From sequence record PX092659.1: a DNA stretch of 64,000 nucleotides. The stretch is one strand, 5' to 3'. A program made the position numbers and the translations under genes. Shown here piece by piece: positions 4,952 to 44,415 of this stretch. Below the pieces are notes generated by a model. It was not told where the DNA came from. It worked only from the letters and a program-made list of their open reading frames with translations, and searched no databases. The number at the start of each line of letters is the position of its first letter. Within the stretch, counting starts at the first letter, position 1. Source of the stretch: a phage.

Positions 4952-6328
4952 ATGACTATTGATATTAATAAGCTGAAAGAAGAACTTGGTCTGGGTGATC
5001 TGGCTAAATCTCTGGAAGGTCTGACCGCTGCTCAGAAAGCTCAGGAAGCTGAACGTATGCGTAAAGAGCAGGAAGAAAAAGAACTGGCTCGTATGAATGA
5101 CCTGGTTTCTAAAGCAGTTGGCGAAGATCGTCAGAAACTGGAACAAGCTCTGGAACTAGTTAAGTCCCTGGATGAAAAATCTAAAAAGAGCGCAGAACTG
5201 TTCGCACAGACTGTAGAAAAACAGCAGGAAACTATTGTTGGTCTTCAGGATGAAATTAAATCTCTGCTGACAGCTCGTGAAGGTCGTTCCTTCGTTGGTG
5301 ATAGTGTTGCTAAAGCACTGTACGGTACTCAGGAAAACTTTGAAGATGAAGTTGAAAAACTGGTTCTGTTATCTTATGTAATGGAAAAGGGCGTATTCGA
5401 GACCGAACACGGTCAAAAACACCTGAAAGCAGTGAATCAGTCTTCTTCTGTAGAAGTTTCTAGTGAAAGCTATGAAACTATTTTCTCTCAGCGTATTATC
5501 CGTGACCTGCAGAAAGAGCTTGTAGTTGGCGCACTGTTCGAAGAACTGCCGATGTCCAGTAAGATTCTTACTATGCTGGTTGAACCGGATGCTGGTAAAG
5601 CTACTTGGGTTGCTGCTTCTACTTATGGTACTGATGCAACTACTGGTGATGAAGTTAAAGGTGCTCTTAAAGAAATCCACTTCAGTACTTACAAACTGGC
5701 TGCTAAGTCCTTCATTACTGATGAAACTGAAGAAGATGCAATCTTCTCCCTGCTGCCACTGCTTCGTAAGCGTCTGATCGAAGCACACGCTGTTTCTATT
5801 GAAGAAGCCTTCATGACTGGTGATGGTTCCGGTAAACCGAAAGGTCTGCTGACTCTTGCTAGTGAAGATAGTGCTAAAGTTATTACTGAAGCTAAAGCTG
5901 ATGGTTCCGTACTGGTAACTGCTAAAACTATCTCTAAATTGCGTCGTAAACTGGGCCGTCATGGTCTGAAACTGAGCAAACTGGTACTGATTGTATCTAT
6001 GGATGCTTACTATGATCTGCTGGAAGATGAAGAATGGCAGGATGTTGCCCAAGTTGGTAATGATGCTGTTAAACTGCAGGGTCAGGTTGGTCGTATTTAT
6101 GGTCTGCCGGTTGTAGTTTCTGAGTACTTCCCAGCTAAAGCTACTTCCGCAGAGTTCGCAGTTATTGTTTATAAAGATAACTTCGTAATGCCACGTCAGC
6201 GTGCTGTTACTGTTGAACGTGAGCGTCAAGCTGGTAAACAGCGTGATGCTTACTATGTTACTCAGCGTGTTAACCTGCAACGTTACTTTGCAAATGGCGT
6301 TGTATCTGGTGCTTACGCTGCATCTTAA
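4952..6328 (+). CDS. major capsid protein precursor
   Basis: 458 aa; N-terminal coiled-coil delta/scaffold-like domain (KLKEELGLGDLAKSLEGLTAAQKAQEAERMRKEQEEKELARMNDL) followed by HK97-fold body; strongly E. coli-optimal codon usage; followed by intrinsic terminator. Confidence 0.9.
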   Translation: MTIDINKLKEELGLGDLAKSLEGLTAAQKAQEAERMRKEQEEKELARMNDLVSKAVGEDRQKLEQALELVKSLDEKSKKSAELFAQTVEKQQETIVGLQDEIKSLLTAREGRSFVGDSVAKALYGTQENFEDEVEKLVLLSYVMEKGVFETEHGQKHLKAVNQSSSVEVSSESYETIFSQRIIRDLQKELVVGALFEELPMSSKILTMLVEPDAGKATWVAASTYGTDATTGDEVKGALKEIHFSTYKLAAKSFITDETEEDAIFSLLPLLRKRLIEAHAVSIEEAFMTGDGSGKPKGLLTLASEDSAKVITEAKADGSVLVTAKTISKLRRKLGRHGLKLSKLVLIVSMDAYYDLLEDEEWQDVAQVGNDAVKLQGQVGRIYGLPVVVSEYFPAKATSAEFAVIVYKDNFVMPRQRAVTVERERQAGKQRDAYYVTQRVNLQRYFANGVVSGAYAAS

Positions 6329-21130: not shown

Positions 21131-23481
21131 TGGCAATAACTACTAAGATTATTGTACAACAAATATTAAATATTGATGATACTAAAGCTACTGCTAGTAA
21201 ATTTCCTAGATACACAGTAACTCTTGGAAATTCTATTAGCTCTATTACTGCTAATGAGTTAGTATCTTCTATAGAGGCTGCTGCTAAATCTGCTGCGGCT
21301 GCAAAAGATTCTGAAATAGCTGCTAAAACCTCAGAACTTAATGCTAAAAACTCTGAACAGGAAGCTGCTATTTCTGCTGGAGCTTCTGAAGCTTCTGCTA
21401 CTCAGTCTGCTACCTCTGCTACTCAGTCTGCCACTTCTGCTACTAAATCTGCAGAATCAGCTGCAGCTGCAAAAACCTCTGAAACTAATGCTAAGTCTAG
21501 TGAAACAAAAGCTAAAACTAGCGAAACTAATGCAAAAGCTAGTGAAACAAAAGCTAAAACTAGCGAAACTAATGCAAAAGCTAGTGAGGATAAGGCAAAG
21601 GCTAGCGAAACTAATGCTGCTGCATCGGCGGCTGATGCAAAAATTAGTGAAGATAAAGCAAAAACCAGTGAGACTAATGCAGCTCAATCAGCGGCTGATT
21701 CTAGCGGTTTTAGGAATGAGGCGGAAATATTTTCTGGGCAAGCTGCTGCATCGGCATCTGCGGCAAAAATCTCTGAAACCAATGCAAAAACCTCGGAAAC
21801 AAAAGCTAAGGCTAGTGAAACTAATGCTGCGGGATCTGCAACTTCTGCCAGCCAATCTGTAGCTGCTATTCAAGTACTTAAATCAGATGTCGAACAGTTA
21901 AAATCTGATACCCAAGCCATTAAAAATAGTGCTGTAACAGAGACAACAGCTTTAAAAGCGGATGTAGAACAGTTAAAATCTGATACCCAGGCCATTAAAA
22001 ATAGTGCTGTAACAGAGACAACAGCTTTAAAAAACCAAGCTGCAACTTCTGCAACTAATGCTGCTAATTCTGCAGCAGAAGCGGGGGGACAGGCTACTGC
22101 TGCTGCTAATAGTGCTAATACTGCTAAAACTGAAGCCGATCGTTCAAAAACTGAGGCTGATAGATCAGAAGCTGCTGCTAATTCTACCCCCGACATTCAA
22201 CCTCTTCCAGATGTATGGATACCGTTTAACGATTCTCTAGATATGATCACCGGCTTTGCACCAGGCTATAAAAAAATAACAGTCGGTGATGAGGAAATAA
22301 CACTGCCTAGTGACAAAATTGTCTCGTTTTCCCGCGCGAGTTCCGCGACCTATATCAATAAGTCCGGCGCTCTTACCATTGCAGAAATTAATGAGCCACG
22401 TTTTGAAAAAGAAGGGCTGTTAATTGAAGGGCAGAGAACTAACTATCTAAAAAATTCTAATACACCGGAATTGTGGTACTACCACAGTTTACTGGCGAAA
22501 GAGTATGGGGTTGATAATTACGGTTTTAATTATGCAACCGTCACCGTGACAGACAGCCTTGTAGGCACAACCAGTAGTTATCAGATTCATAGTGTAACTG
22601 GAGAGAACAGGTTTTCTCTGTCCATCGGTGAAACCTGCACTTTTTCTGCCCGCTTTCGTGGAGTTAATTCACGTTGTCGCGTCCATATATCTCTTGTTAT
22701 TGGCGAAAATGTTAAAACATCTGTTGATGTATGTCTGGAGCCAGATACAGGTGAGGTTAAGGCGTACGGTAATAAGGCGCTGGTGACATTCAGAACGGAA
22801 AAACAGGGGGACTGGTGTTACTTTGAAACAACATATACCGCCGCAGAGAATATTGACGAAGTGGTATGCGGTTTTTTTATAACCAATCCTGAAGATGGTG
22901 GTTTTTCTTCTGATTCGTCATTAACAATGACTACGCCACAAATTGAAAAGGGGTCATGTGCTTCATCATTTATAATCACAGGAGAAACGCCAGCAACTCG
23001 CGCTAGTGACATGGTTTTTATACCAACCGATTGCAATGAACCATCATCTATACCGTTAAGTCTACTTGTTGAGGTAAATAGAAATTGGGATATAGCCCCA
23101 AACTCAGCTCCAAGGATAGTACATGTAGCAAATTTACCAGAAGACCAGTTATTAGTTGCTTTCAGGGTTCCATCAAGCGATACAGTAGAGCCGCTGCCTT
23201 ATTCTCAGTTGGGGGTCAGTCAGTCATTTACGCCAGTATCAACAAAAACAAGCGGGAAAATGGTGACGGGTTTTGTTTGCAACAAAAGCTCAGAATTAAG
23301 ATGCGTAACAAACGCTGTGTTCGGTGCGCCTGTGAAAACAACATGGAAAGCTGGTTTATCTAAAAATCTTCGTATCGGCGGCATAAGTGCAGATGGTGGT
23401 AAACATCTTTTCGGGCATGTCAGAAATTTTAGAATCTGGCATAAAGAATTAACGGATCGTCAAATGAGGGAGTCTGTGTGA
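21130..23481 (+). CDS. ltfA: L-shaped tail fibre protein A (LtfA-like), C-terminal lectin-like receptor-binding domain
   Basis: 783 aa; N-terminal Ala/Ser/Thr/Lys-rich repeat shaft (SETNAKA-type repeats), C-terminal domain with composition shift and ...GHVRNFRIWHKELTDRQM ending resembling LamG/concanavalin-like domains. Confidence 0.68.
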   Translation: MAITTKIIVQQILNIDDTKATASKFPRYTVTLGNSISSITANELVSSIEAAAKSAAAAKDSEIAAKTSELNAKNSEQEAAISAGASEASATQSATSATQSATSATKSAESAAAAKTSETNAKSSETKAKTSETNAKASETKAKTSETNAKASEDKAKASETNAAASAADAKISEDKAKTSETNAAQSAADSSGFRNEAEIFSGQAAASASAAKISETNAKTSETKAKASETNAAGSATSASQSVAAIQVLKSDVEQLKSDTQAIKNSAVTETTALKADVEQLKSDTQAIKNSAVTETTALKNQAATSATNAANSAAEAGGQATAAANSANTAKTEADRSKTEADRSEAAANSTPDIQPLPDVWIPFNDSLDMITGFAPGYKKITVGDEEITLPSDKIVSFSRASSATYINKSGALTIAEINEPRFEKEGLLIEGQRTNYLKNSNTPELWYYHSLLAKEYGVDNYGFNYATVTVTDSLVGTTSSYQIHSVTGENRFSLSIGETCTFSARFRGVNSRCRVHISLVIGENVKTSVDVCLEPDTGEVKAYGNKALVTFRTEKQGDWCYFETTYTAAENIDEVVCGFFITNPEDGGFSSDSSLTMTTPQIEKGSCASSFIITGETPATRASDMVFIPTDCNEPSSIPLSLLVEVNRNWDIAPNSAPRIVHVANLPEDQLLVAFRVPSSDTVEPLPYSQLGVSQSFTPVSTKTSGKMVTGFVCNKSSELRCVTNAVFGAPVKTTWKAGLSKNLRIGGISADGGKHLFGHVRNFRIWHKELTDRQMRESV
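21499..21582 (+). repeat. exact 42-bp tandem duplication inside fibre repeat array
   Basis: agtgaaacaaaagctaaaactagcgaaactaatgcaaaagct occurs twice in tandem (21499-21540, 21541-21582), in frame (SETKAKTSETNAKA); part of degenerate repeat array approx 21280-21870. Confidence 0.85.
21886..22035 (+). repeat. 75-bp tandem direct repeat (2 copies) in ltfA
   Basis: 21886-21960 and 21961-22035 differ at 2-3 positions; encode 25-aa repeat DVEQLKSDTQAIKNSAVTETTALKA. Confidence 0.85.
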
Positions 23482-30655: not shown

Positions 30656-31429
30656 TTAGTCGTCCAGATCGCTTGCAGCTTCTTGGTCAATACCTTTCTG
30701 GGAACCAGCATTGCTGTTACCAGATTTGGCATCATCATCTTTATTCTCACGACCTTCCATGAAGGCTTGAATTGCTTCCTTCTGCTCTTCATAGGTAGGA
30801 ACCGGATAGGTTTGTTCCAGAGAAGGAACTTTTTCGAACTTAATGATGTCACCATCTTCATCACACATAGCTTCACCGATCAGATCTACATCCGCAGCAT
30901 ATTGCTTAGATTCCGCACTGTTAGGATCTTGCAGCTTAATCTGGAACTGCATAGCAGCAATCTGCTGTACATCATACTCAGTATCGAAACCTTTACCTTT
31001 TTTCTCGATAGAAATATCAATATCAAACGGAGTTGCCAGGTTCAACTGCTTCATGATAGACTGGATGCCTTTCAGAATAGTAGCCTTGACTTCCATTACT
31101 TTCAGTTTGTTATCAGAACGGTCAATAACAAAAGCAATATAGTTTTTCTTCGGTTTCAGCGGAACACGATTACCGTCTTTATCCAGCTCTTTCTCAAAGA
31201 AGCCCATCTCATGAACCGGATCGGCTTTACCACGAACAAAGCTCTCTTTGTCACGGTTGAAACGAAGACATTCGAAAGGAGCTACGCTACCCTCTTTATT
31301 AGTCAGCCAATAGACATAACGTGGAAGAACACCAGAAACGATACGAACACGAGTGATACCGTTGTTGAACTTCAGGAATTCGATTTTATCGTTAGAACCG
31401 CCAGTAGTTTCGCCCCAAGACTTAGCCAT
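30656..31429 (-). CDS. D11-like abundant early protein, possible ssDNA-binding protein
   Basis: 257 aa, strong SD AAGAGGA, E. coli-optimal codons, acidic C-terminal tail (DQEAASDLDD) reminiscent of SSB tails; function is inference. Confidence 0.4.
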   Translation of the reverse strand: MAKSWGETTGGSNDKIEFLKFNNGITRVRIVSGVLPRYVYWLTNKEGSVAPFECLRFNRDKESFVRGKADPVHEMGFFEKELDKDGNRVPLKPKKNYIAFVIDRSDNKLKVMEVKATILKGIQSIMKQLNLATPFDIDISIEKKGKGFDTEYDVQQIAAMQFQIKLQDPNSAESKQYAADVDLIGEAMCDEDGDIIKFEKVPSLEQTYPVPTYEEQKEAIQAFMEGRENKDDDAKSGNSNAGSQKGIDQEAASDLDD

Positions 31430-37286: not shown

Positions 37287-37816
37287 GCGTTTAGCTCCTC
37301 TAATGCAGGATAATTAGACGGGTCGAATATTTCTTGAATAGCGTTTTCCCCATGGAACTGTAGTCGTAGCTTATTAATCTTATCTATTGCTGATTCTAAA
37401 TTCTGGTACTCAAAATATCCACCGAATACTTTCTTTTTATTGGTATCTCTTAGTTGAACTTGCCATTTTTGCCTTTGTTTATTCCAACTAACTCCTATAT
37501 ACCCTGATTTACTTTTAGCTGCTTTATTCCTACTATTCTCTTGGTGAGAAGAATCTTTAAGATTAACCCAACGATTATCACTTCGTATACGGTTTATATG
37601 GTCTACCTCTTCAGGTAAATAACCTTCCATATAGAGAAAAGCTAGTTGATGAGCATAGTAAGGCTTTCCATCTACCCATATACATATATAATCATCTTTT
37701 CTTAAAGAACCAGCTATACTACCAGCTCTTTGATTGCCTCTAGATACTTTTCTAGTAAACTCCCCAGTTCCTGGGGAGTAATCAAATAACTCTTTTAGCC
37801 TTTCCTGTGTTATCAT
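37283..37816 (-). CDS. HNH homing endonuclease with AP2-like domain
   Basis: 177 aa; HNH core AHQLAFLYMEGYLPEEVDHINRIRSDN; YIGVSWNKQRQKWQVQ AP2-like; ATGA overlaps with both flanking genes (helicase stop and primase start). Confidence 0.8.
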   Translation of the reverse strand: MITQERLKELFDYSPGTGEFTRKVSRGNQRAGSIAGSLRKDDYICIWVDGKPYYAHQLAFLYMEGYLPEEVDHINRIRSDNRWVNLKDSSHQENSRNKAAKSKSGYIGVSWNKQRQKWQVQLRDTNKKKVFGGYFEYQNLESAIDKINKLRLQFHGENAIQEIFDPSNYPALEELNA

Positions 37817-39279
37817 ATATCGCTGGCCTGTTCACCTGTTGAATTTTCAGCTTTGTCTTTCTTAGCACGTTTAGGTTGAGCCGGCTTATCCTTCTCAATA
37901 GGGATAACGAACTCAGCTTCCATTTGAGATATATCTTCCATTGCTAGGTTGGTAGTGTTATCCATTCGCAGAGTTTCCCAGTTCATTTTAGGCATAAACT
38001 TCACGCTATCAGAAGAACGAGTCTTAACGAAGTCAAACATAATAGCACCTTGACCATTATCAGCTTTTGCAGCATTAAGATTAGCAGCCATGTCTGCGGA
38101 ATCAAGAATCCCCTTTGACATACGTGTTCTACCATCCTGATCGATCTGGTAAGGAGCTACACCAGCCACGTTATGTTTCTGGCAGATAGATTTGAAAGAC
38201 GAGCTAACAACCATCTGTTCTTTCCAGTCATACATATCAATGGTTTTAGAATCTGGAAGTCGGGTTTGGTTAATATAGTCCAGTAAAGCTACTGTAACTT
38301 TATCACCATATCTAGCAACTAATTTATTTAACTCTACATCAACTGTTGTAATGGACAGTTCAGGGTCATAAACGATAATCATAGGAGTATGTAGTTCATA
38401 CCCCTCTATTAGTTTACTCTCCATATCGTAGAAATCACTCATCTTAGCCATTGTGTACTGTTTAACAAAGTTATCGAAAAGCTCTTCACCACCATTAAAC
38501 ATTCTAGCTCTAGTTCTGGCTAATCTCAACAGAGCTGCACCTTCTAGAGTATTATTACGCATTGCTAGTGCTGATACACCAGCTAACATGGCTAGATTAC
38601 GTCTAAATACTTCATGTTCTTTCATCTCAATTGAGAAGTATGGAGCAATATCTCCATTCAAATATTGCTGAACCTGTATGTTTGAACAGATAATGGATTT
38701 ACCAGTACCACGCCAACCACCAAGCAGTAACGTTTCTGTGCGAGCTAAACCAATTTGAGCGTCGAACTCATTACAAATACCAAGAGCGATTAAGTTCAGT
38801 TTGGTATCTTCTTCTCTCTGGAAAATACGCATGTTATCTGCGTTGAATACTTTTCCAGTATTCGTTACTTTCTCTTCTAATTTTAAGTGAAGGGAGGCAA
38901 CTCGGTTGAGAATTTCTCCCTGATCCAGCATTGTTAAATCTTGAAGCACGTCTGTTTCTAGAAGCTTCAGGAATAAATCCTGTGTATATTCGGCCTCTAG
39001 GACTTCAAGTGCCTGTTCCATGCTCACTTCTGGAATTTGAGTGTTAGCTAAGACGACTAGAGCTTGAGAAAGGCGGGCGTTCCTATTAGCTTCAAGCATA
39101 AGTGCGTCAATGGACGGCATTGTGTTATATTTTTTATAATAATTCTGGACGGCTTGGTAAATTGAGGAGAAAGCGTCATTAAAATGATCTTTATGCAGTT
39201 TTGAGAATGTTTCCAATGCTATTTGCTTCTGTTCGGAAGCTAGAAGCATCTTCAACACTACAGCTTGCACGTTAAACAT
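37813..39279 (-). CDS. replicative DNA helicase, DnaB-like RecA-fold ATPase
   Basis: 488 aa; Walker A LLLGGWRGTGKS, Walker B-like IIVYDPELS; N-terminal helical domain; adjacent to primase. Confidence 0.65.
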   Translation of the reverse strand: MFNVQAVVLKMLLASEQKQIALETFSKLHKDHFNDAFSSIYQAVQNYYKKYNTMPSIDALMLEANRNARLSQALVVLANTQIPEVSMEQALEVLEAEYTQDLFLKLLETDVLQDLTMLDQGEILNRVASLHLKLEEKVTNTGKVFNADNMRIFQREEDTKLNLIALGICNEFDAQIGLARTETLLLGGWRGTGKSIICSNIQVQQYLNGDIAPYFSIEMKEHEVFRRNLAMLAGVSALAMRNNTLEGAALLRLARTRARMFNGGEELFDNFVKQYTMAKMSDFYDMESKLIEGYELHTPMIIVYDPELSITTVDVELNKLVARYGDKVTVALLDYINQTRLPDSKTIDMYDWKEQMVVSSSFKSICQKHNVAGVAPYQIDQDGRTRMSKGILDSADMAANLNAAKADNGQGAIMFDFVKTRSSDSVKFMPKMNWETLRMDNTTNLAMEDISQMEAEFVIPIEKDKPAQPKRAKKDKAENSTGEQASDI

Positions 39280-39853
39280 TATCTAGCAGCTCCTCTGTAA
39301 AGTTATCCGCTATATTCTGCGGTTTAACCCTCTCTATATCTAGAGCATCTAGAGCTGCGAAATCTCCATACAGGGCTAAAAGCAGCTTATCTCTATACCA
39401 CAGAGCTTCTCCTAGAGTTTTTAGGGTTTTTCTAAATACTTTGGAGTTTTTAGATATGGTTACTTTAAATGTGTTATTTTTTGTTACTTCTATATTACGA
39501 ATGCCTAGCTTGTTACCTATAAAGCTATTAGCGGAATTTTGAGAGGAAGTAACTTCACGTAAGTTATTCCAAGTATTATCAGTTTTAATTCTATTTTTAT
39601 GATCTACCTTGTCAGGAATTTCTCCTTCCATGTATAGAAAGGCCCACCTATGCGCTCCCATAGATTTTTGTATACCTGACTCTAAGGTTATCTTTATATA
39701 AATGTAGCCCGATGAATGCATATAGCCTGCAGGTTTGTTAGCGTGCTTAGCATTGAACGCAGGATTATTTTCTCTAGGTAGCCAGTAAAAATTTCCAGTA
39801 TCAGGCTCATATCTTAATAATGTTTTAAGATACTGCTGGGTAATCTCCCCCAT
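39272..39853 (-). CDS. HNH homing endonuclease with AP2-like domain
   Basis: 193 aa; HNH core AHRWAFLYMEGEIPDKVDHKNRIKTDN; C-terminal AP2-like segment. Confidence 0.75.
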   Translation of the reverse strand: MGEITQQYLKTLLRYEPDTGNFYWLPRENNPAFNAKHANKPAGYMHSSGYIYIKITLESGIQKSMGAHRWAFLYMEGEIPDKVDHKNRIKTDNTWNNLREVTSSQNSANSFIGNKLGIRNIEVTKNNTFKVTISKNSKVFRKTLKTLGEALWYRDKLLLALYGDFAALDALDIERVKPQNIADNFTEELLDNV

Positions 39854-39861
39854 TATGTAGC

Positions 39862-39897
39862 CTTCTAATATACAAGAAAGGAGAACCGAAGTTCTCC
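39862..39897 (-). terminator. intrinsic terminator after D5-like gene
   Basis: minus-strand GGAGAAC-UUCG-GUUCUCC hairpin followed by UUUCUUGUAU. Confidence 0.7.
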
Positions 39898-39912
39898 TTA
39901 TCTGCCTTCTAA

Positions 39913-40680
39913 TTATTCAGCAGCCGCAGCTTTTGCATCCAGTTTAGCACGCTTAGCGGCACCATCATAGTCCTTAGCAACCAGACCACGACGGGACAGC
40001 ATAGATTTAACACCACGCTCAGACTTACCAGTTTTCTCAGCGATCTCAGCAACAGTCATGTTAACCAGATCCAGACCTTCTAACAGATCTTCACGAGTTT
40101 TAGCACTTGAAGTTTCCTGTACCGGCATAGCCGCAATACGACCTTCACGGAGCAGGCTCAGAGCTTTACCACGGATCTGCTTAATATTGCGACCGAAGTG
40201 AGCAGCGATAGCTTCAATAGTAGCACCAGCAACAACCTGATTAACAAAGTCAGTTTCTTCATCCGGAGTGAAGGAACGAACAGCAGCAGCTTTTTCAGTT
40301 GGTTTAACAGAAGCGGTCATTTCCAGACTCAGGATCTTACCCTGTACCTGTTTAGCACCAAACTGACCACCAGCTACAGCAGCAGCGATTTCAGCATAAG
40401 TATACTGACCAGCATGAGCGTTCAGGAAATCAACCAGTTCAGCTTCCTGCTCAGGAGTCCACGGGGATTTCTGTACTTCGTTAGCTTTCTGTACTTCGAA
40501 ACCTTCTTTACGCAGCTTAGAGCCAACAGAGCGAGCGGTAACGTCTTTGCCAGTTTCAGCAGCCAGTTCAGCAGCGATAGCCGCTACTTGTTCTTGAGAG
40601 ATTACAGCAACACCCAGAGCAGTGGCTTTTGCTTTCAGAGACTCGGTTACACCTTCTACGTTCCAGTTCAGTTTAGACAT
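39913..40680 (-). CDS. abundant early DNA-binding protein with three internal repeats (D5-like)
   Basis: 255 aa, Ala-rich, E. coli-optimal codons; three repeated helix-turn-helix-like modules (TYAEIAAAVAGGQFGAKQVQGKILSL / TIEAIAAHFGRNIKQIRGKALSL / TVAEIAEKTGKSERGVKSMLSR). Confidence 0.5.
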   Translation of the reverse strand: MSKLNWNVEGVTESLKAKATALGVAVISQEQVAAIAAELAAETGKDVTARSVGSKLRKEGFEVQKANEVQKSPWTPEQEAELVDFLNAHAGQYTYAEIAAAVAGGQFGAKQVQGKILSLEMTASVKPTEKAAAVRSFTPDEETDFVNQVVAGATIEAIAAHFGRNIKQIRGKALSLLREGRIAAMPVQETSSAKTREDLLEGLDLVNMTVAEIAEKTGKSERGVKSMLSRRGLVAKDYDGAAKRAKLDAKAAAAE

Positions 40681-41452
40681 TATTATTTTTCTCCAATAGT
40701 TCTTTAATCGACAGGATTTCTATCCCATTCGTTTCGGCTTTCTTATAAGATGAGGAAGAACGCTTCGATTCATCCTCACAGATTAGGTATTTGACGTCTT
40801 TGGTAACGGATTTCTTAACCGTATATCCTAGACCTTCTAAATAGTTTGTTGCATCCGTTCTATTTGCAAAATCTTGCAAAGATCCGGTAATACATACCGT
40901 TATTCCGTTTGGTTGGGCTACTAGACCATCAGTGATGATGACCTCAGCTTTAGCACCTTTAATACCGGTTGTGAATTTCCATGGTAATTCGATAACATCC
41001 TTGCCTTGTGGGGAATTTAGCCAGGCTTTATAATTTTCTCCAGCTTTGCCATCAGCTCTCACATCATGGAAGCTAGTGCAATTTTGGGATAATTTCTTTG
41101 CTGCAACCTCTCCAATTAGAGGGATTCCTAAAGAACCGAGAACTGAACCAAAGTCAATGTCTCCGCGAACTTTAGTATTTAATTCGCTAATTAACTTAGC
41201 GGCAACCTTGCTACCCACGGCTCTAACCAAATCTTCTTCGGTTAGGTAAAATAGTTCTGAAATCTTCGTCAGCTCCAGCTTCTCAATAGTTTTTGGGCCA
41301 AAGCCCTTTAACTTCATTTTTGTACAGAAGTTCTCAATTAACTTACTTGACTGCGCTGGACAGTTGGACTTATTCCTACAGAATAATTGTCCGTTGACAA
41401 GATCTAGCTTAGAACCACAAGAGGGACATTGTGTTGGAATTTCGATTTTCAT
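40673..41452 (-). CDS. ligB: NAD-dependent DNA ligase, C-terminal part (Zn finger, HhH, BRCT) - subunit B
   Basis: LigA-type zinc finger CPSCGSKLDLVNGQLFCRNKSNCPAQ, HhH GFGPKTIEKL, C-terminal BRCT-like; ATG 41452 with SD AGGAAG. Confidence 0.8.
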   Translation of the reverse strand: MKIEIPTQCPSCGSKLDLVNGQLFCRNKSNCPAQSSKLIENFCTKMKLKGFGPKTIEKLELTKISELFYLTEEDLVRAVGSKVAAKLISELNTKVRGDIDFGSVLGSLGIPLIGEVAAKKLSQNCTSFHDVRADGKAGENYKAWLNSPQGKDVIELPWKFTTGIKGAKAEVIITDGLVAQPNGITVCITGSLQDFANRTDATNYLEGLGYTVKKSVTKDVKYLICEDESKRSSSSYKKAETNGIEILSIKELLEKNNNV

Positions 41453-41482: not shown

Positions 41483-41511
41483 ATTATAGCAAGTATTTAA
41501 GCATTTAGCAA
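41483..41511 (-). promoter_or_regulatory. T5-type early promoter between ligase halves
   Basis: minus strand TTGCTA(41511-41506)-17 bp-TATAAT(41488-41483) followed by ATTTATATAAATTGA. Confidence 0.6.
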
Positions 41512-41654
41512 CTACAATTTTAACTAACTTTGCTCACCCTCGCCATAACTTTCTATCCCTCAACTGAATGATAATAGTATATACCTAAGCGGCGAAAATG
41601 TCAATAACCACTTTATAATTCCGATATGGTAGATGGGTAGCAAAGGGTTATGTA

Positions 41655-42626
41655 TTAATCATATACTCGCTCTACTATGCACGGGATTACACCACCAGCA
41701 CGAATCACTCGAATCTGGCAACCGATCTCTAGATCGAGAGAGTTAATATAATCAACGTTATTAAGAGTCGCTTTAACAATTGTAGCATCATCAATAATTA
41801 CCGGTTCGAAATAACCAACTGGAGTTACTTTACCAGAAGCCCCTACCTGCCACTCAACTTTAGTAAGAGTTGTAATCTCGCCTTCTTCATCCTCTTTAAC
41901 AGCAAATGCTCCACGAGGGAATTTATTAGTCCAGCCTTCACGGAAGAATTTGTTGTTGTCATTAATACGAACAACTTTACCGTCCGTCGGAATCCATTTA
42001 AAGAAGGAACGCACATTAACAACTGTTAAGAAGTTCTCATTCTCTAGCCAAAGCATATCTTTTAAGTATGCTTCTGTAATACCTACAGATTCAGCAGAAC
42101 ACTGGATACCATAAGCAACAAAGATTAAACCACCTTCCCCGATACGTTGTACGAAATCATCACTATCTTTGAGGTTAATAGCACCAGAGGCAAAGTTACG
42201 TTTATTTTCTACTTCTTTTGTAATTAGAACTTCACCAGTGATTTGAGTTGGTACTTTTTGGGAAATCTTTTTAGGGATATTCAGCAGTCTTACGTTGCTT
42301 GTGACATCATTCCCTAGAATACCATTACCACGAGTTAGTGCTTGAACAAATTCGCCATTAATATATAGTAGAGAAATCGCACAACCATCTAACTTGTCAG
42401 TTTCTACCTGACCTAATGGGTTAAATGGGGGTTTATCTCCACGATTATAATAAACTTTCTGTAAAGAATACATACGATACAGATGTGGAATATCGCCCTT
42501 AGGCCCGATCTCTTCTTCTAACGGAAATCTTTTAATCAGACGATCATATTCTTCGTCAGAGATTAAAGACATTCCCTGGTAATATGCTTCTTGACAGCGT
42601 TTAATAAATTCTTTTACATTGGTCAT
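41655..42626 (-). CDS. ligA: NAD-dependent DNA ligase, N-terminal adenylation/OB part - subunit A
   Basis: 323 aa; adenylation motif KLDG (ETDKLDGCAISLLY), NAD-ligase nucleotidyltransferase and OB-fold region; ends where Zn-finger domain would begin. Confidence 0.85.
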   Translation of the reverse strand: MTNVKEFIKRCQEAYYQGMSLISDEEYDRLIKRFPLEEEIGPKGDIPHLYRMYSLQKVYYNRGDKPPFNPLGQVETDKLDGCAISLLYINGEFVQALTRGNGILGNDVTSNVRLLNIPKKISQKVPTQITGEVLITKEVENKRNFASGAINLKDSDDFVQRIGEGGLIFVAYGIQCSAESVGITEAYLKDMLWLENENFLTVVNVRSFFKWIPTDGKVVRINDNNKFFREGWTNKFPRGAFAVKEDEEGEITTLTKVEWQVGASGKVTPVGYFEPVIIDDATIVKATLNNVDYINSLDLEIGCQIRVIRAGGVIPCIVERVYD

Positions 42627-42692: not shown

Positions 42693-43004
42693 TTATTCTT
42701 TTTCCGCCAGGCGTTTAGCTTCTTTTTCTACTTCTAATAAAACCTCACTATTAGATAATATTTTAGTAAATGCCTTAAATAAATGAGATGTTGTTTCTAG
42801 AGTGTATGGCATACTGAATCCACTTTTTGTTGGAAACCATTCACCTTCTATATCTTGGAGCCAGTACCTAATTCCTAAGTATAGATTCCCCCTAAACTCA
42901 GATACAGTTAGCCTAACCTGTTGGCCATCTTCTCTTTCCCAGATAACTATGGACTGATCATCTACATGTCCAACATAATCCTGATTTACATTATCTCCCG
43001 ACAT
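42693..43004 (-). CDS. putative PC4-like ssDNA-binding protein
   Basis: 103 aa; RLTVSEFRGNLYLGIRYW...WFPTKSGFS pattern resembles PC4/YdbC-like fold; assignment by motif only. Confidence 0.4.
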   Translation of the reverse strand: MSGDNVNQDYVGHVDDQSIVIWEREDGQQVRLTVSEFRGNLYLGIRYWLQDIEGEWFPTKSGFSMPYTLETTSHLFKAFTKILSNSEVLLEVEKEAKRLAEKE

Positions 43005-43651
43005 TTTATTGCTCCCTGACTTAGGAGATATTCCTCTGCCTCCTCTGGTTGAATATTAAAAAACTCAGTAGAACCATCAAATATTGATTCTGTAAATATC
43101 TGTGTAGTACTAAAAAATCTATGAGCTTTATTTTCTAGATTATACGCTGACTCATCATAAGAGTATACTCCATATATACTCAAGTCCTCCAGATTAGAAT
43201 CTTTTTTGATCTCTAAAAGTCTTCTATCTGGACTTTTAGATGTTCCTATTTTTGTGCCTAGTTGTGGGCTATAAAATACGTATAAATAGCTAGTAGATTT
43301 ACACATAGGGCATGATCTACCAGCATTTTTAACTTTATCTACACTACTAGTCCACGTGTGTCCGTGGGTGCACTCAAATATTGCCGGACTTTGGGAATTT
43401 ATATAGGAGGATATAAGTTTTATACCTTTAGTACTTAACTGTTGATTTATGACCTCTACAGTTAGTTTAGCTTTGCCACTACAATAAGGGCAGCCACTAC
43501 CTTTCCGTATATTACTTAAATATCCCTTCCATTGATGACCTTTTGAACACTCAAATATAGCGGGTGTTCTTATATTAGCCCATTCACTCACTATATGAAA
43601 ACCTAGTGGCTCTAACTCTTTATTTATTTGCTCTTCTGTTAATTTTTTCAC
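42986..43651 (-). CDS. zinc-ribbon plus T5orf172/GIY-YIG-like putative homing endonuclease
   Basis: 221 aa; two repeats ending in CPYC/CPMC; C-terminal YLYVFYSPQLGTKIGTSKSPDRRL...GSTEFF; GTG start; paralog of 1489..2163 and 54845..55708. Confidence 0.6.
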   Translation of the reverse strand: MKKLTEEQINKELEPLGFHIVSEWANIRTPAIFECSKGHQWKGYLSNIRKGSGCPYCSGKAKLTVEVINQQLSTKGIKLISSYINSQSPAIFECTHGHTWTSSVDKVKNAGRSCPMCKSTSYLYVFYSPQLGTKIGTSKSPDRRLLEIKKDSNLEDLSIYGVYSYDESAYNLENKAHRFFSTTQIFTESIFDGSTEFFNIQPEEAEEYLLSQGAIKCREIM

Positions 43652-44004: not shown

Positions 44005-44415
44005 TTACTTAGTGATAGCTCGGATTGCTTCTGCCAGATGAGCAGCCGCTTTACCGGTCAGTTTGTCGATAATTGCATCATCCAGAAAATCTGGTGCTAA
44101 GCCAGCATCAGAGAACGCTGAACGAAGATCAGCATGAGCTTGGGCTTTGGAGGTACGAGAGCCACCGGAAGCTTTTTCTCCAGTAGATGCACTAGATTTA
44201 GAAGTAGAACCAGCAGCTTTCTTGATATACAAACCTGCTTTAGTCAGTTTCATACGAAAACCGTTCGGAGTTACACCATTTTCCTGGGCAATTTCACTAA
44301 CAATTTCCATGCTAACGCCCGGACGTTCATCCTCTGGGAATTGCTCCATACGAGCAACGTATTCGGAAGACATTTTTTCGAACAGTTCATCAGTCCACTG
44401 AGTTGGAGTAGTCAT
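44005..44415 (-). CDS. hypothetical abundant early protein
   Basis: 136 aa; E. coli-optimal codons; Ser/Ala-rich central linker; promoter immediately upstream. Confidence 0.45.
   Translation of the reverse strand: MTTPTQWTDELFEKMSSEYVARMEQFPEDERPGVSMEIVSEIAQENGVTPNGFRMKLTKAGLYIKKAAGSTSKSSASTGEKASGGSRTSKAQAHADLRSAFSDAGLAPDFLDDAIIDKLTGKAAAHLAEAIRAITK

Follow-up and report, generated by a model that had tools for sequence, protein, structure and literature searches.

The window, which is the whole 64,000-nucleotide stretch of phage DNA that was analysed, carries on its minus strand the gene order ligA, a 200-bp gap, ligB, D5, a hairpin, an HNH gene and a gene for a DnaB-like helicase. The ligA gene (41655-42626, minus strand) was located from the ORF list and annotation. 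The ligB gene (40673..41452, minus strand), which encodes the small subunit of the split NAD-dependent DNA ligase and includes a BRCT domain, lies upstream of D5 and is co-transcribed with it. The coding sequence of D5 itself (39913..40680, minus strand) starts with ATG and comprises 255 codons and the stop codon, with the coordinates and protein length given in the initial annotation. Between the hairpin behind D5 and the helicase gene (37813-39279, minus strand) is the HNH gene (39272-39853, minus strand).

The D5 product has the N-terminus MSKLNWNVEG, and is rich in alanine as earlier noted (45 of the 255 residues, 17.6%); its mass was calculated as 27.0 kDa and its pI as 6.8, the whole protein being approximately neutral. 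It is the ortholog of the T5 protein D5 (T5.118) and identical to it in 254 of the 255 amino acids, the sole substitution being A25 here and D25 in T5. In the profile search, residues 1-253 matched PHROG 323, 'transcriptional regulator, D5-like' (E 1.5e-71). The nucleotide search retrieved 423 phage records with 95-99% identity to the gene, most of them from Tequintavirus and its relatives, and the gene has 98% nucleotide identity with genes labelled 'D5 protein/DNA-binding protein' in several records. The T5 record describes T5.118 as a DNA-binding protein on which DNA replication and late transcription depend and which takes part in shutoff. Because of the 254/255 identity and this description, the window is taken as that of a T5-like phage and the ORF as gene D5. 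The T5 locus has the same protein, neighbours, ligB overlap and promoters, P-K28b and P-K28a; it differs in the sequence of the terminator hairpin, and an HNH homing-endonuclease gene follows the hairpin only here and not in T5. The gene itself is already known and was correctly recognised, and for a genome scan it is an ordinary one.

The gap between ligA and ligB includes two sigma-70-type sites; it shares 99% identity with the part of T5 where P-K28b and P-K28a are annotated. Both sites were identified by a promoter scan together with the T5 annotation: TTGACA-17-TATACT (41576..41604, minus strand) equals P-K28b, and TTGCTA-17-TGcTATAAT (41483..41511, minus strand) equals P-K28a. Judged from this match, the ligB-D5 transcript is driven by these two known strong early promoters. 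No promoter-like site was found inside ligB at the scan threshold, and D5 was therefore assumed to have no private promoter. A Shine-Dalgarno motif GGAG (40691..40694, minus strand) is located 10 nt 5' of the D5 ATG. The ATG lies within the last codons of ligB with an overlap of 8 nt, also present in DT571/2, T5 and the marine relatives, and because of this position translational coupling of ligB and D5 is likely. In the ORF list ligB begins at a TTG (41455); T5 starts the gene at the next codon, an ATG (41452) that stands behind the sequence AAGGAAG.

With the weights of the Sharp-Li E. coli table, the codon adaptation index (CAI) of D5 came to 0.72. Of the ORFs in the window with 80 aa or more, 63 in number, none had a higher value, and their mean was 0.27 (sd 0.115). 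The codons were GCT in 38 of the 45 alanines, CTG in 17 of 19 leucines, CGT in 10 of 12 arginines and GGT in 17 of 19 glycines, which confirms the earlier statement of E. coli-optimal codon use. The CAI of ligB was just 0.22 despite its co-transcription with D5. The promoters equal to P-K28a and P-K28b and the top CAI are sequence signals of early, high-level expression. In lysates of T5 and BF23, D5 has been found 'very abundant', while purified virions did not contain it (PMC10644984). The protein, suspected from the letters to be a highly expressed early DNA-binding protein resembling D5, proved to be D5 itself, as indicated by the PHROG match, the identity with T5 D5, the T5 record and this abundance. 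In the Yersinia phage phiR2-01, D5 has been reported among the major virion-associated proteins, as opposed to its absence from purified BF23 virions; the association is likely carry-over of an abundant protein.

Three other ORFs in the window also had E. coli-optimal codons compared to the mean of 0.27: 4952-6328 (plus strand; CAI 0.66), 30656-31429 (minus strand; 0.56) and 44005-44415 (minus strand; 0.55). The last is by position and length the counterpart of T5 D3, which is annotated as a DNA binding protein. Upstream of ligA are a PC4-like ORF and an ORF with a T5orf172/MUG113 domain (42693-43004 and 42986-43306, both minus strand). The PC4-like ORF, a homolog of T5.115, probably encodes an ssDNA-binding transcriptional cofactor and has the same position in the marine relatives.

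The hairpin resembling an intrinsic terminator (39878..39899, minus strand) is located 14 nt past the D5 stop codon, ahead of the HNH and helicase genes. It reads AAGGAGAAC-TTCG-GTTCTCCTT, followed by TCTTGTATAT; its stem of 9 bp carries a TTCG loop, and its tail is rich in T. In RNA folding it was the centroid structure. T5 and DT571/2 have at the same place behind D5 a hairpin of different sequence, AAGGGGAGG...CCTTCCCCTT followed by TTTTGCA, and yet another is found in a marine relative with approximately 50% protein identity, TCTAGAGAGA-TTCG-TCTCTCTAGA followed by ATTTCTTT. A real terminator is supported because the position of the hairpin has been kept in all these phages while its sequence has not. 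The terminator ascribed to D5 in the initial annotation therefore stands as a candidate, with its stem and T-tail, its centroid fold and the non-homologous hairpins of the relatives behind it. In T5 (L007 8100-8125) and DT571/2 (L001 5790-5815), the annotated start of D6/dnaB falls inside the loop of the hairpin (AAGGGGAGGgggctATGctCCTTCCCCTT), and this annotated start is probably over-extended.

The HNH gene is an HNH_3 homing-endonuclease ORF of 193 aa (Pfam E 5.5e-14), the stop codon of which overlaps the start of the helicase gene. It was present in 12 of the 517 phage records with D5, the best match being Salmonella phage VSe12 (99.8%), and was missing from the site between D5 and dnaB in T5 and DT571/2.

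Internal repeats were detected from the single D5 sequence by off-diagonal Smith-Waterman self-alignment, the score of 77 not being reached by any of 100 shuffles (38.6 +/- 7.7). Homologs numbered 715 at E <= 1e-3 in a word-indexed search and formed 572 clusters at 50% identity in an exhaustive search; 56 sequences were aligned. The alignment of these 56 sequences divided into four segments, each with a similar conserved end: RSVGSKLRK, KQVQGKILSLE, KQIRGKALSLLRE and ERGVKSMLSRRG. Sub-alignments of the homologs delimited four units in D5, U1 at approximately residues 6-63, U2 at 74-125, U3 at 137-185 and U4 at 195-238.

When the units were compared with hhalign, the most similar pair was U2-U3, with a probability of 96% (E 3e-9, 56 columns), followed by U3-U4 (62%), U1-U4 (39%), U1-U3 (31%), U1-U2 (30%) and U2-U4 (8%). 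All six unit pairs scored above all of their 100 column-shuffled controls (z 4.3-15.6), U1 reaching z 5.1-5.6 against U2, U3 and U4, and U4 reaching z 7.4 against U3 and 5.2 against U1. As judged from these profile comparisons, the repeat of D5 is four-fold, U2 and U3 representing a clear duplication and U1 and U4 older or more diverged copies, whose homology to U2 and U3 appears moderate by hhalign probability (about 30-65%). At the DNA level no tandem repeat was found beneath the protein repeats, just a 12-nt repeat of 2.2 copies at 40549-40575, and since there is no such repeat the duplication of the units is considered ancient.

Three repeats of about 25 aa resembling helix-turn-helix (HTH) units had been described in the initial annotation. 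The repeats themselves are real and exceed chance, both in the self-alignment it had proposed and in the alignment of homologs; their number is four. The 25-aa unit equals the core formed by helix 2, the turn and helix 3, while the full unit in U1-U3 is about 50-58 aa long and has three helices. The three repeats were probably the HTH cores of U2-U4 and the missed unit U1, which was overlooked because in Tequintavirus a 5-residue insertion in its turn hides it. That such an internal multiplication is unusual among phage DNA-binding proteins is correct insofar as tandem HTH arrays are uncommon; the arrangement is not unique, other multi-HTH proteins being present in BFVD and five-unit proteins among the D5 relatives.

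The AlphaFold2 model of D5, built with the 56-sequence alignment (mean pLDDT 94, pTM 0.56), showed HTH modules, in line with the structure prediction suggested earlier, and a separate model of U2-U3 (pLDDT 91, pTM 0.54) agreed with the full-length model. Because pLDDT was high and pTM was 0.56 and 0.54, the modules are regarded as confident and their mutual orientation as uncertain. In the model, unit 1 (residues 6-63; 40492..40665, minus strand) has helices at 11-22, 29-43 and 49-58. Unit 2 (residues 74-125; 40306..40461, minus strand) begins with a Myb/SANT-like W-T-P-E-x-E and has helices at 76-88, 95-101 and 109-118, and unit 3 (residues 137-185; 40126..40272, minus strand) begins with F-T-P-D-E-E and has helices at 139-150, 155-162 and 166-178. 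Unit 4 (residues 195-238; 39967..40098, minus strand) consists of an extended segment followed by helices at 210-217 and 221-231; it is a two-helix HTH core without a modelled helix 1, as compared to the three-helix modules of U1-U3. The chain ends with a predicted conserved, basic and alanine-rich helix (residues 240-254, GAAKRAKLDAKAAAA, net charge +3; 39919..39963, minus strand), preceded by a conserved D-Y-D-G motif; in this region, D237, G240 and K246 vary hardly or not at all.

In each unit, helix 3 was the most conserved element (mean information content 3.4-3.8 bits, compared to 2.85 overall) and also the only positively charged one, with net charges of +4, +2, +4 and +3 from U1 to U4. 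The recognition-type helix of U1, ARSVGSKLRK, has a net charge of +4 and an information content of 3.69 compared to the overall 2.85, and helix 3 of U3, IKQIRGKALSLLR, has likewise a net charge of +4. The invariant residues of the third helices are R50, K55, L56 and R57 in U1, Q113, G114, K115 and L117 in U2, G171, K172 and L174 in U3, and G223 and L228 in U4. Helices 1 and 2 are acidic with the exception of helix 1 of U1, helix 1 having a charge of -4 in both U2 and U3. Conservation in the family extends also to the linkers, with VKPTEK and MPxQ, and to the tail, with DYDG...K. The four-module anatomy and the likely locations of the DNA-contact helices, as placed on the predicted models, are a modest refinement of what was known of D5; also added here are the comparison of hairpins between phages, which supports the terminator, and the dismissal of two labels used in databases.

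Foldseek searches of the PDB found nothing significant for either the whole chain (best E 0.095) or the U2-U3 pair (best E 0.062), TM being low, and no structural family is claimed beyond a generic HTH for this reason. The weak neighbours found by Foldseek and profile searches were nearly all DNA-bound HTH modules, often in tandem: the Myb repeats of Cdc5, SNAPC4 and c-Myb, the Timeless DNA-binding domain, Cbp1, Tc3, Mos1, the DUX4 double homeodomain, and POU and LuxR-type domains. The whole-family profile found in the PDB only a designed engrailed-homeodomain variant, matching unit 1 (profile positions 5-49, E 5.6e-4). The pooled profile of U2 and U3 gave weak matches to SNAPC4, MYB21, c-Myb, Timeless and B-Myb (E 0.0015-0.22), of which the natural Myb-type ones (E 0.0015-0.04) are suggestive only. 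The top match of the unit profiles, the 'CAP repeat' 8vd6, has five near-identical repeats and looks engineered, and it was not counted as a relative. Among the PDB entries searched there was no solved bacterial or phage nucleoid-associated protein made of tandem HTH repeats. We know of no structure of D5.

The sole Pfam cut-off passed by D5 was that of Sigma70_r4_2 (28.7 bits, cut-off 25.7), by residues 204-230 of U4 only. HTH_23 (151-184, U3) and Myb_DNA-binding (PF00249; 71-100, U2; 17.6 bits, cut-off 24.4) remained under their cut-offs. Sigma70_r4_2 was matched by 50 of the 56 family members, HTH_23 by 33 and Myb by 14, the last at E < 0.01. According to these profiles and the predicted models, the modules of D5 are generic homeodomain/Myb-like tri-helical HTHs.

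With the tandem repeats of the Myb/SANT and homeodomain proteins (c-Myb R1R2R3, SNAPC4, DUX4; HTH_23/HTH_7-type), D5 shares three-helix modules in tandem, the start of helix 1 ([W/F]-[T/S]-x-E-E-E) and a basic helix 3. In the AlphaFold2 models, U1-U3 have the Myb/SANT type of repeat, with three helices in about 50 aa, but of the three regularly spaced tryptophans of Myb/SANT the second and third are absent from D5, in which only the first aromatic residue (W6, W74, F137) is conserved. D5 differs further in its Pfam scores below cut-off, in being a phage protein and in its neutral net charge. The HTH repeats of the Sulfolobus protein Cbp1 (PDB 2lvs), likened to beads on a string, resemble D5 in that several imperfect copies are carried in a small chain; the Foldseek match was, however, non-significant (E 0.2-0.34, TM 0.16-0.36), and Cbp1 is archaeal and specific to the CRISPR-repeat sequence. 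In BFVD, 13 phage proteins matched the D5 model at E <= 1e-3, several of them other multi-HTH proteins.

The label of D5 as a single-stranded DNA-binding protein, used in one record, was rejected, the model being all-alpha and without an OB-fold barrel, and no SSB or OB match being found in Pfam.

All four units are kept in the full-length relatives of D5, which are 233-262 aa long, and five units were found in P0121, in which U2 has been duplicated, as well as in P0185 and P0193. The much longer profile matches were generic HTH_23/HTH_7 arrays. Two proteins of 506-569 aa, P0255 and P0247, have an N-terminal HTH resembling GerE or sigma region 4, followed by four to five D5-like units. The order of ligase, D5 and helicase genes is shared between the window, with ligA-ligB-D5-(HNH)-dnaB, and DT571/2, T5, the marine contigs and a five-unit variant. 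In the marine lineage (approximately 50% identity), the order is PC4-like, ligA, ligB, D5 with its ligB overlap, DnaB, primase and PolA. The five-unit P0185 (L005 6001-6852) belongs to a more distant replication module of the T5-like kind, which runs from an unsplit NAD-ligase through a nicking endonuclease of T5 type and a dUTPase to the D5-like gene, DnaB, primase and PolA. The place between the ligase and DnaB-primase-PolA has thus been kept down to about 50% identity and in the five-unit variants.

Genetics has linked D5 since the 1970s to continued T5 replication, early shutoff and late transcription: in D5 mutants DNA synthesis is arrested, early genes are not shut off and late genes are not expressed. 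Biochemical work of 1979-1983, attributed to McCorquodale and colleagues, Rice and colleagues, and Fujimura and Roop, reportedly found D5 to bind duplex DNA cooperatively and not sequence-specifically. A new role as a retron trigger adds to the interest of this classical phage regulator.

According to a 2026 preprint, D5 is a 26-kDa monomer in solution, its expression by itself is mildly toxic to E. coli, and it triggers the type IX retron-Kva2, which would sense the DNA-binding surface of D5; binding of msDNA is there an AlphaFold3 prediction (bioRxiv 10.64898/2026.07.11.737809). Phages escaping the retron had the D5 changes G53D, W74*, V149I and G232D, and D2 and D3 of the same module were changed in escape mutants as well (bioRxiv 10.64898/2026.07.11.737809). 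When the escape sites were mapped on the model, G53 was placed within helix 3 of U1 and G232 directly after helix 3 of U4, which gives the report a residue context, G53D and G232D being in or beside the third helices of units 1 and 4. The DNA-binding T5 activator of DRT4 was considered as D5 and rejected, this activator being ORF55, which lies in the deletable region.

We consider it fairly probable that D5 is an abundant multivalent coat of double-stranded DNA, which shuts off early genes while permitting replication and late transcription. Each helix 3 would be placed in a major groove, so that the four contacts of one monomer, each weak and of low sequence specificity, would span a few turns of DNA. 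Contacts between neighbouring monomers, provided by the conserved linkers, the acidic faces and the C-terminal helix, would make the binding cooperative. Present at very high copy number, D5 would coat the phage DNA; the coating would occlude early promoters, producing the shutoff, and would keep the nicked template fit for continued replication and late transcription. The identity of D5, its top CAI, the strong early promoters, its abundance in lysates, the four HTH units, the conserved basic helix 3, the DNA-bound HTH neighbours, the conserved place in the genome and the published experiments are points for such a coat. The net-neutral charge, unusual in a protein that would cover DNA non-specifically, counts against it, as do the uncertain orientation of the modules, the missing helix 1 of the modelled U4 and the moderate homology of U1 and U4 to U2 and U3. 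The four modules with a conserved basic helix 3 in each make the coat model concrete and open to mutation.

The early, very abundant proteins p6 of phi29 and TF1 of SPO1 are histone-like binders of duplex DNA with roles in replication, early shutoff and late transcription. As a coat, D5 would be a functional phage 'histone-like' protein comparable to them with a different fold; the likeness is one of functional analogy only, with no relationship in sequence or fold, p6 being small and dimerising and TF1 HU-like, while D5 is a monomer of four HTH modules. A more tentative proposal, which we find possible and rather doubtful, is that D5 stands for a structural class of its own among phage 'chromatin' proteins: a monomer of four Myb/homeodomain-like modules would polymerise on duplex DNA via its conserved linkers and C-terminal helix, the resulting coat over the replicating T5 genome, and not a sigma-like factor, would be the physical early-to-late switch in transcription, and DNA-mimicking defences such as type IX retrons would sense it.

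The binding of D5 may also have a specific component, because specific sequences are what tandem HTH arrays mostly recognise in other systems (Myb, Pax, Cbp1, transposases). Repeats of the Myb and homeodomain type recognise sites, as opposed to the non-specific cooperative binding reported for D5. Taken further, D5 could be a sequence-specific activator of late genes, its four modules reading a long composite late-promoter site in the manner of Myb R2R3, paired domains or Cbp1, and recruiting or redirecting the host RNA polymerase. This we regard as improbable. It agrees with the annotations 'transcription factor D5' and 'transcriptional regulator, D5-like', with the need of D5 for late transcription given in the T5 record, and with the mostly sequence-specific binding of the tandem HTH neighbours in the PDB, but the top CAI, the two strong promoters and the major band in lysates are far above the needs of a site-specific activator. 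Furthermore, the classical biochemistry is said to have seen no sequence specificity, and activation of late promoters alone would leave the arrest of replication and the failure of early shutoff unexplained.

It is likewise unlikely that D5 would mainly be a replication protein, such as a replisome organiser, a helicase-loading partner or a polymerase accessory, acting on duplex DNA at forks or nicks and affecting transcription secondarily. Its strictly conserved slot, which follows the ligase and directly precedes the genes for the DnaB-like helicase, the primase and the DNA polymerase in T5, the marine relatives and the five-unit variants, would suit such a role, and in many phages origin-binding or organiser proteins occupy such a slot. 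Also the requirement of D5 for DNA replication in the T5 record and the changes of D2 and D3 in the retron escape mutants point in this direction. The Pfam, NCBIfam and PDB searches did not, however, reveal any resemblance to known families of initiators or loaders, T5 has a separate protein annotated as 'replication origin binding' (T5.108), and the abundance of D5 suggests a stoichiometric role rather than a catalytic or organising one.

That D5 would be a sigma-like factor, or mimic sigma region 4 in binding core RNA polymerase, is very improbable: the Sigma70_r4_2 match and the annotation 'RNA polymerase sigma factor' in phage Shivani speak for it, but the match covers 27 residues of the generic HTH of U4, a stretch homologous to the other three D5 units, which match homeodomain/Myb-type models, no region 2 or region 3 domain accompanies it, and NCBIfam sigma70-ECF gave 12.6 bits against a cut-off of 42.9. 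The sigma factor label was rejected on these grounds, and both it and the single-stranded DNA-binding label are corrected here for D5.

Elsewhere in the window, tandem repeats were clustered at 21385-22132, the period being 21, 42, 63 or 75 nt and the matches reaching 97%; they look in-frame and presumably belong to a repetitive structural, fibre-like protein.
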